Under the pieces are notes generated by a model. It was not told the origin of the DNA, did not search any database, and saw only the letters and a program-made list of their open reading frames with translations. From an uncultured Chlamydiae bacterium (GTDB taxonomy: Bacteria; Chlamydiota; Chlamydiia; Chlamydiales; JAJFMB01): a stretch of DNA of 64,000 nucleotides. Of this stretch, positions 62,638 to 64,000 are shown piece after piece (the stretch's first letter is position 1; every line of letters starts with the position of its first letter). The stretch covers positions 2,048,001 through 2,112,000 of the forward strand of contig CAVOJR010000001.1 of NCBI GenBank assembly GCA_963696295.1, in the 5' to 3' direction. Position numbers and translations under genes: made by a program.

Positions 62638-64000
62638 ATGAAAAAGAATATTGCTCTTCTGGTCGCGCTGTTTTTGGCTATTGCCGCTCCGGGTCTCCAG
62701 GCGAAAAAAATCACGTACAGCGATTTTACTGAAAGCTCCTTTAATTTTACGGATATGGCTCTCAGCGATGATAAAATCAAAATAGAAAGCAGCGAGCTAT
62801 ATCATTCCGTCAAAGCAATTTTTCTGGATGGCAAGTATGTCATGCTTGAAAATGACTTTATCTGGGAAGTGGACTACTGGTATCAGTCGACAGCCAATAA
62901 GTGGCAAGAGGGAGACAAGCTCAAAGTTTATCGCGATGATACCTGGGAAATAGAGAATGTCACCAAAGGCAATTCAGTCTATGGCCCATTTGCCGGATAT
63001 GAGCGGGCACAGCTGGGCCGGATCAAGACCATTCGCGACGATAATACCCTGATCGAACTCGCCGACGGGAAGCAATTTCAAACCCTGTCCCTCTCTTTAG
63101 TGCATAGCTCCGGCTCCCAGCCGGGCGATCTGGTTTTCTGGATGCACAGCAAAGGATCCTCTACCCACAAATACGCTCTTTGGAATTTCACTCGGGGCTA
63201 TATCATGTATAACCTGAAATATCTGGGCGTTGCAGGCGCTTCCAAAGACGAAACAAAGATTGTCTTCGATTTGAGCCACATCCAAGATTTGGAGAGTCGT
63301 TTAGGCGCTCAACTGAAAGGGCAGCCGGGGGCGATTAAAACGGTATGCGACGCGCTCCTTCGCTTTTCCCTGCATTTGAACGATCCGCAAAAGCCGATCG
63401 GCGCCTTCCTCTTTGTCGGTCCCACCGGGGTGGGCAAGACGGAGCTTTGCAAGGCTTTGGCCCGCGAGCTGTTGAAGTCTGAGTCGGAAATCATCCGTTT
63501 CAATATGGCCGATTTTAACTCGAGAGCGAGTGTCTGGAGATTAATCGGCGCAGCTCCCGGTTATGTCGATCATGAGGCCGGGGGGCAGCTGACCGAGGCG
63601 ATCAAACGCAAGCCGAACGCCATCGTTCTCCTGGACGAGATGGAAAAGGCCGATCCCGAAGTACAAAAAATCTTTTTATCCGTGTTTGACGAGGGCTTTG
63701 TCCTGAATGCCGATAACCAGCGGATCGATTGCTCCAAGTGCCTTTTTGTGATGACCTCGAATTTGGGTTCCAAGGATATCATCAATATGTCTCACAGCGG
63801 AAGAAGTTCAGAAGAAATTTTGGAGAAGATCGAGCCTTTGCTGATTCGGGGATTATCGCCTGAGCTGTATAACCGCCTGGAGCCGGTCGTGTTCCACGCG
63901 ATTTCTGAAGAAGTGCTCAGTGATTTGGTCGATCTTTTGCTCAACAAAGTGGTGAGCAATTTTAAGGAAAAAAGAAACATCACTGTGAATATCGATGAGA
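62638..64000 (+). CDS. Signal-peptide-bearing ClpA/ClpB-family AAA+ ATPase with NBD2 only (truncated by the window edge)
   Basis: Manually translated: MKKNIALLVALFLAIAAPGLQA, ~185 aa beta-rich region, then GQ..AI, PIGAFLFVGPTGVGKTEL, RLIGAAPGYV, LLDEMEKA, MTSNLG. Confidence 0.88.
   Translation, partial: MKKNIALLVALFLAIAAPGLQAKKITYSDFTESSFNFTDMALSDDKIKIESSELYHSVKAIFLDGKYVMLENDFIWEVDYWYQSTANKWQEGDKLKVYRDDTWEIENVTKGNSVYGPFAGYERAQLGRIKTIRDDNTLIELADGKQFQTLSLSLVHSSGSQPGDLVFWMHSKGSSTHKYALWNFTRGYIMYNLKYLGVAGASKDETKIVFDLSHIQDLESRLGAQLKGQPGAIKTVCDALLRFSLHLNDPQKPIGAFLFVGPTGVGKTELCKALARELLKSESEIIRFNMADFNSRASVWRLIGAAPGYVDHEAGGQLTEAIKRKPNAIVLLDEMEKADPEVQKIFLSVFDEGFVLNADNQRIDCSKCLFVMTSNLGSKDIINMSHSGRSSEEILEKIEPLLIRGLSPELYNRLEPVVFHAISEEVLSDLVDLLLNKVVSNFKEKRNITVNIDE

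Follow-up and report, generated by a model that had tools for sequence, protein, structure and literature searches.

Since the cell envelope has no supply of ATP, the accepted view places bacterial Clp ATPases in the cytosol, and we know of no characterised bacterial Hsp100 at an extracytoplasmic location such as the one predicted here. Torsins combine a signal peptide with one NBD2-related domain in an extracytoplasmic lumen; they have no Arg finger and need LAP1/LULL1. Mpa/ARC and PAN ATPases belong to a different AAA+ clade. According to PMC7343390, Skd3 (human CLPB) is a stand-alone disaggregase in an extracytosolic space, and the isolated NBD2 of ClpB, Hsp104 and Skd3 is inactive, which is ascribed to a lack of hexamer formation. 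HSP101/ClpB2 of the Plasmodium PTEX is presented in PMC7355975 as a Clp-type unfoldase at the vacuole membrane of an intracellular parasite.

The stretch of DNA analysed here (the window, 64,000 nt) ends inside a gene at 62638-64191 on the + strand, whose stop lies beyond the window end and whose 517-aa product is P0001 (Table 1). As the earlier note had described, one frame, open from the ATG at 62638 past the window end, runs unbroken from a signal through two repeats to an NBD2; the AAPGLQA end of the signal is found at residue 22, and Walker A, Walker B, the pore GYV and sensor 1 were all located, together with an Arg finger. Five codons ahead of M1 there is an in-frame stop. Pfam placed AAA_2 at residues 252-415 and ClpB_D2-small at 423-501, plus overlapping P-loop families, and gave no match before residue 247 among those shown, nor any with residues 23-214 alone. 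In the AlphaFold model (mean pLDDT 83), the signal forms a helix and is followed by a disordered linker, a pair of small beta domains and the NBD2. The promoter-like site upstream scores 10/12, with a TG, and is the top site in the region, ending 30 bases before the ATG; alone it is weak evidence, since the region holds 10 such sites against 6.6 expected. No RNA holder was listed for the gene.

Table 1. Features of the P0001 gene and its upstream region, in window positions
Feature	Position	Strand	Basis or remark
Candidate sigma-70-like promoter site, TTGAGT-17-TATAAT, extended -10	62579..62607	+	consensus match only
Predicted Sec/SPase I signal peptide, residues 1-22	62638..62703	+	sequence and family statistics (heuristic)
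Flexible linker, residues 23-54	62704..62799	+	pLDDT <50 for residues 18-51
Beta repeat 1, OB-like barrel, residues 55-123	62800..63006	+	model, profile and fold comparison
Beta repeat 2, OB-like barrel, residues 128-199	63019..63234	+	model, profile and fold comparison
ClpB-type NBD2 large domain	63271..63891	+	Pfam, profile and structure comparison
Walker A	63418-63441	+	sequence
Pore loop PGYV	63556-63567	+	sequence
Walker B	63628-63639	+	sequence
Sensor 1	63754-63762	+	sequence
LSPELYNR Arg-finger motif	63853-63876 (Arg 63874-63876)	+	sequence
NBD2 small domain, start	63892..64000	+	continues beyond the window end; stop at 64191
Sensor 2 GVRPL	64045-64059, beyond the window	+	sequence

Searching with a 16-member profile gave 7866 proteins at E <=1e-60, presumably mostly ordinary Clp fragments, and the best 120 were examined. 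Signals were called throughout with our own heuristic (a 10-residue core of mean hydropathy >=2.0 starting within 16 residues, with an n-region that is not net negative) and with family-wide statistics. By this measure 107 of the best 120 homologues carry a signal peptide, which goes against the objection, raised in the earlier note, that homologues might lack it; the other 13 resemble, by eye, truncated or mis-started gene calls. The background of the heuristic was 273 of the 1304 ORFs of at least 300 aa in the same genome, and none of six canonical ClpB/ClpC. Of the 107 signal-bearing homologues, 100 have a net positive charge ahead of the core and 91 a net charge of zero or below behind it; the asymmetry favours N-in/C-out in 96 and the reverse in 3. 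A cleavage-site pattern was present in 86 of them, compared with 18-36 in seven shifted controls, and two signals were lipobox-like. The best 120 contained no twin-Arg motif and no second hydrophobic segment (highest 19-residue mean, 1.47). When the search was widened to representatives at 50% identity, 34 of the 50 additional matches of at least 330 aa among P0137-P0191 also passed. The n-h-c signal is, by heuristic, a family-wide trait, and export across the inner membrane by Sec/SPase I is a well-supported and highly probable prediction.

The motor itself is well preserved. Within the best 120 homologues, Walker A is kept in 117 and the pore GY in 112, while Walker B, sensor 1, the Arg finger and sensor 2 are present in all. 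P0001 has the complete feature set of a ClpB/Hsp104 NBD2 with its small domain, and its modelled NBD2 overlays the isolated NBD2 of Thermus ClpB with a TM of 0.93 and an rmsd of 2.1. The claimed absence of an NBD1, an M-domain and a second transmembrane segment was borne out by Pfam, TIGR03346 and hydropathy: the ClpB model TIGR03346 aligned over positions 556-850 of 853 only (270 bits, cut-off 1232), there is a single Walker A, and neither a coiled-coil middle domain nor a Clp N-domain was found in the N-terminal part, which is beta-rich in the model and without a Pfam match. An IGF/L ClpP-docking loop is also absent, none of five loose pattern matches being an IGF loop, and 116 of 119 homologues have 38 residues between sensor 1 and the Arg finger, versus 45, with a VGF loop, in the ClpC of the same genome.

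Regarding the two repeats, both patterns quoted in the earlier note are present and the relationship stands at the profile level (hhalign of the repeat halves of one alignment, 99%, E 3.4e-18); the likeness between the two single sequences is off register and not significant (blastp, E 0.043). The beta-domain model is confident (pLDDT 93) and mainly beta. Each repeat resembles OB-type barrels, with PmrD as the top match (Z 6.2, rmsd 2.4, 64 aligned), many OB folds at Z 3.6-5.7 and none at Z >=8, values that would point only to a common fold and to neither kinship nor function. No Pfam or NCBIfam family reached its cut-off with the beta domain, no PDB sequence matched it, and Foldseek gave no match at E <=0.001; Atlas matches were hypothetical or 'secreted protein' clusters only, and weak DUF1344 matches came up in 6 of 34. 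An initial homologue search with the beta region alone returned 1 protein. Within the phylum the domain was matched in 188 of 400 genomes, a figure that includes fused forms, and in none of the 29 genomes of family f36. It also occurs alone behind a signal, called by heuristic in 89 of 119 stand-alone homologues, and the stand-alone proteins of Parachlamydia and Waddlia are named only hypothetical or secreted protein. Stand-alone signal plus beta-repeat genes were seen at G000:C1:2630019-2630822 and 455546-456922, in loci L030-L050 and at L127:2116-2826. The repeats are optional, many signal-bearing NBD2 members lacking them.

Members of this NBD2 family, predicted to be exported, were found in at least 20 of the 400 phylum genomes at E 1e-22 and in none of the 29 of family f36; the first figure is a floor, because most Legionellales forms would escape a cut-off this strict. 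An exact-motif search across 185,579 genomes, which misses motif variants, gave 20 loci: by record title, 12 are Chlamydiota (one of them a sister form with no signal), three uncultured bacterium, one Legionellaceae and four Myxococcota, the last being full-length two-NBD proteins that share the motif only. In Legionellales, a signal-NBD2 gene is present in 5 of 204 genomes, the other eight matches being full-length ClpB-sized frames. GspE was over its cut-off in four of these five carriers and partial in the fifth. No ATP/ADP (TLC) translocase was found in any of the five, whose genome completeness is not stated; a TLC match occurs in 3 of 203 Legionellales genomes, none of them carriers. Full-length TLC ATP/ADP transporters were noticed at L110 and L111 (genomes G465 and G511), and such strong matches are rare in Legionellales (2/203). 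Carriers of the family are host-associated groups, namely environmental chlamydiae and some relatives of Legionella.

Five architectures were seen: signal-NBD2, signal-beta-beta-NBD2 (91 of the best 120 homologues), signal-NBD2x2, signal-beta-NBD2x2 and signal-NBD2x3. The two- and three-module relatives (P0005-P0014, P0137-P0142; L059, L094, L120) carry their tandem NBD2 modules about 325 residues apart, and the first module is often without motifs. A form with four or five modules did not appear among the matches listed; 1, 2 and 3 all divide six. In one nested member, P0201, the NBD2 comes first, and the C-terminal tail resembles Sel1-type repeats by eye.

The source genome also keeps an ordinary ClpB and ClpC, four TLC nucleotide transporters and a type II secretion operon (GspE by search, neighbours by eye). 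A tandem paralogue, P0002 (347 aa; L001:8195-9238, outside the window), begins two bases after the P0001 stop and has a signal peptide and an NBD2 62% identical to that of P0001, without beta repeats. A third paralogue, P0004 (516 aa; G000:C1:2347754-2349304, L002:7755-9305), lies 237 kb away and consists of a signal, two beta repeats and an NBD2; it is 37% identical, with a GC of 0.41 against 0.47 for the contig, and is likely a separate acquisition, since the tree sets it apart from the tandem pair. A misassembled or frameshifted fusion, the other concern of the earlier note, is ruled out by these two paralogues and by the recurrence of the same fusion in many genomes; moreover, exact pieces in public runs, which may be those of the source study, cross the signal/mature and repeat/NBD2 junctions. 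No neighbour gene was common to more than 3 of 39 loci, and we rejected a dedicated partner or translocon cassette, a seven-locus cluster being an antisense frame of the ATPase. A phage origin was likewise discarded, viral contigs holding no relative of the family.

Some neighbouring or similar genes are worth recording. Directly after the P0002 stop (L001:9239-11215, outside the window) lies a 658-aa ORF with a double hydrophobic stretch, a long helical tail and no Pfam match over cut-off; it is Inc-like by eye and was not seen beside other members of the family. On the 135-kb second contig, G000:C2:58610-60496 (-) encodes a ClpA/B-like ATPase of 628 aa whose N-terminal half is unusual; it is not a family member, and behind it come a gene that looks radical-SAM-like by eye and two ORFs without known identity. 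Within the window, at 59313-61454 (-), there is a 713-aa ORF whose C-terminal part we take to be a LOG/DprA-like Rossmann stretch.

We built an NBD2 tree of 68 rows (79 extracted, 11 near-redundant or partial ones left out) with 12 canonical outgroups; Skd3, torsins and HSP101 are absent from our trees. The 51 rows of the signal clade form one side of a branch supported at 97/96, with the Legionellales rows nested inside. Forms with beta repeats fall within a 24-row subclade (98/95) that also includes four repeat-less members, P0002 among them. The signal is maintained across the clade at about 30-60% identity. The clade's sisters are signal-less chlamydial proteins; in four of the five, NBD1 has decayed. 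The topology suggests an order in which a ClpB duplication would have been followed by decay and loss of NBD1, gain of the signal and fusion to the repeats. Sister lineages without a Sec signal (L007, L011, L012, L014, L016, L121; P0198, P0203, P0221) have long N-termini that are acidic or rich in Ser, several including basic, NLS-like stretches, then in most cases a decayed NBD1 and the NBD2; by eye, they look host-directed.

A quick tree of 89 rows placed nine signal-less rows inside a 57-row clade (SH-aLRT 88). Four of these nested members, P0178 with P0200 (99), P0143 (98) and P0147 (98), have Ser-rich or hydrophobic N-termini that are effector- or Inc-like by eye and that rest on single metagenomic proteins from hosts of unknown identity; others of the signal-less rows are likely mis-started. 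The leaders of these retargeted members had no convincing counterpart in the source genome.

A member also exists in a cultured symbiont, so localisation and biochemistry are directly accessible. Locus L086 encodes a protein with exactly the sequence of CAF22956.1 from Protochlamydia amoebophila, which we equate with pc0232 because its neighbours, ArgRS and DUF2709, match pc0231 and pc0233; it is annotated clpB_1 and holds only NBD2 domains. According to PMC5451489, pc0232 is constitutive (log2RPKM 8.0-9.4, peak at 2 h), is transcribed at all stages, extracellular cells included, and is not among the predicted type III effectors. Nor does it figure among the EB proteins in supplement 2 of PMC5451489, and in this it resembles the CPAF homologue pc0916 and differs from ClpB, ClpC, ClpX, HtrA, Skp and SurA, all of which were detected. 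Since argS and four of the five ntt genes are missing there as well, the absence of pc0232 is weak evidence. The stand-alone beta-repeat gene of Protochlamydia, pc0773, lies after accC and is assigned in the same paper to the early II genes (8.7-9.5 at 2 h versus 3.8-4.2 outside the host, about 30-fold), a class linked to EB-to-RB conversion early in infection (PMC5451489).

As nearly an even bet, we tentatively favour a host-side unfoldase that would be exported, secreted onward into the vacuole or the host, and would remodel proteins there on host ATP. The signal, the intact motor motifs and the lack of an NBD1, M-domain and ClpP loop can be read in the sequence, and Sec export with signal cleavage is predicted from the family statistics. 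Passage beyond the periplasm to the vacuole or host, probably by type II secretion, would be the weakest step; this system, probably widespread in both carrier groups, does not discriminate. According to PMC6717882, Sec/T2S substrates of C. trachomatis reach the inclusion lumen and the cytosol. By analogy with ClpB NBD2 and Skd3, a single hexameric ring might form on host ATP and thread substrates via the pore tyrosine; ring formation, substrate grip and self-activation are argued from the conserved pore GY (112/120) and Arg finger (120/120). Since there is neither a DnaK-binding middle domain nor a ClpP loop, the motor may act alone, with no DnaK or ClpP partner. The OB-like barrels could select substrates or sites, and ATP-dependent assembly could serve as a switch, with the motor off until host ATP is met. 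Isolated NBD2 being inactive elsewhere, members made of a signal and NBD2 only would need their own assembly mechanism.

The signal and motifs fit equally well an exported but periplasm-resident ATP-driven disaggregase or chaperone run on host energy, which we consider somewhat unlikely. Such a role would agree with the constitutive expression of pc0232, with the OB-like repeats and their weak DUF1344 matches, and with the four TLC transporters of the source genome; being inner-membrane proteins, these have to take nucleotides up from the periplasm. Against it, the five Legionellales carriers have no TLC, which contradicts translocase-fed periplasmic ATP as a precondition; the patchy presence (20/400) and the retargeted members are more in keeping with an accessory function directed at the host than with envelope housekeeping; and pc0232 is missing from an EB proteome in which HtrA, Skp and SurA were seen. 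The carriers without translocase, the effector-like N-termini and this EB absence lead us to favour onward secretion. The early induction of pc0773, the type II secretion operon of the source genome, the GspE of the Legionellales carriers and the lack of a shared neighbour gene are counted on the same side. One could also argue that the exported protein binds nucleotides without threading, as a slow, torsin-like ATP-gated switch or scaffold or as an extracellular ATP-consuming enzyme. The inactivity of a lone NBD2 in ClpB, Hsp104 and Skd3, the frequently motif-less first module of the 2x and 3x forms and the sensor 2 of P0001, which reads GVRPL and not GARPL, would all suit this role; conservation of the pore loop and Arg finger speaks for threading and makes it distinctly unlikely. 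Finally, the N-terminus might be an uncleaved anchor of a membrane-tethered Clp with its ATPase in the cytoplasm, or the true start might lie downstream of the hydrophobic stretch. Two lysines directly follow the predicted cleavage site of P0001, 16 of the 107 signals have a 19-residue window with mean hydropathy >=2.0, and Met 40 and Met 69 are in frame. We regard both as very improbable: M1 precedes the signal, the cleavage pattern and the charges before and after the core are those of exported proteins, the beta domain on its own also follows a signal in most of its stand-alone homologues, and the signal persists across a divergent clade. Given the charge bias around the core, the ATPase would lie outside the cytoplasm even if the signal stayed uncleaved.

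The NBD2 family, predicted to be exported, is real, conserved and apparently undescribed; in the literature searched, mostly non-subscription papers, neither pc0232 nor any bacterial Clp ATPase outside the cytoplasm was described. Either leading reading would break the rule of cytosolic Clp proteins, with a secreted remodelling effector or with a periplasmic chaperone on host energy. Going further, it is conceivable, if rather less than an even prospect, that this is the first bacterial family of exported Hsp100 effectors, used by amoeba-dwelling chlamydiae and Legionellales: the motor would stay inactive in the envelope until it assembled on host ATP, its targeting heads (Sec signal, OB barrels or effector-like anchors) would be exchangeable, and two or three modules would be covalently linked in rings. 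The family would offer natural minimal NBD2-only and linked-module motors, although the isolated ClpB NBD2 is inactive, and, if the host-side reading is true, a bacterial parallel to Skd3 and Plasmodium HSP101.

How, then, does P0001 compare with these known systems? The best solved match to the family profile is the NBD2 of Thermus thermophilus ClpB (1qvr/4lj7; 338 bits), followed by ClpC, Hsp104, HSP101 (288 bits), ClpA (259), Skd3 (249-256) and, far lower, ClpX (49; class II, 46-49). P0001 shares with ClpB the catalytic motifs and the lack of a ClpP loop, and differs in having no N-domain, NBD1 or middle domain and in carrying a signal peptide and the signature LSPELYNR. ClpX and HslU, the class II Hsp100 proteins, also form one AAA+ ring, but they are cytosolic and dock to proteases, whereas P0001 lacks the IGF loop. 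Mpa/ARC and PAN set OB barrels ahead of one AAA+ ring, and their OB domains matched the repeats at Z 3.6-4.2. Of the two analogues proposed in the earlier note, the comparison with torsins holds less well: the best 120 homologues keep the Arg finger, and Pfam Torsin (PF06309) is not among the 25 families shown for P0001 and reaches 17.9 bits in P0002 (cut-off 27) and 30.5 bits in the two-module relative P0006, there as a sum with no single passing stretch. The likeness to Skd3 stands in architecture, that is, a targeting signal, a repeat domain and one NBD2-type ring; Skd3 has ankyrin repeats and a mitochondrial signal, while P0001 has OB-like barrels and a Sec signal, with no Pfam ankyrin match in the protein or its mainly beta domain. 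The lower bits of Skd3 relative to ClpB make this likeness probably convergent, with no Skd3 in the trees. HSP101 is eukaryotic, has two NBDs, an N-domain and a middle domain, and acts on the EXP2/PTEX150 channel; no conserved channel partner lies beside the genes of this NBD2 family. Judged from these comparisons, P0001 would function like Skd3 or HSP101 while belonging to neither of them, nor to ClpB, ClpX or the torsins.
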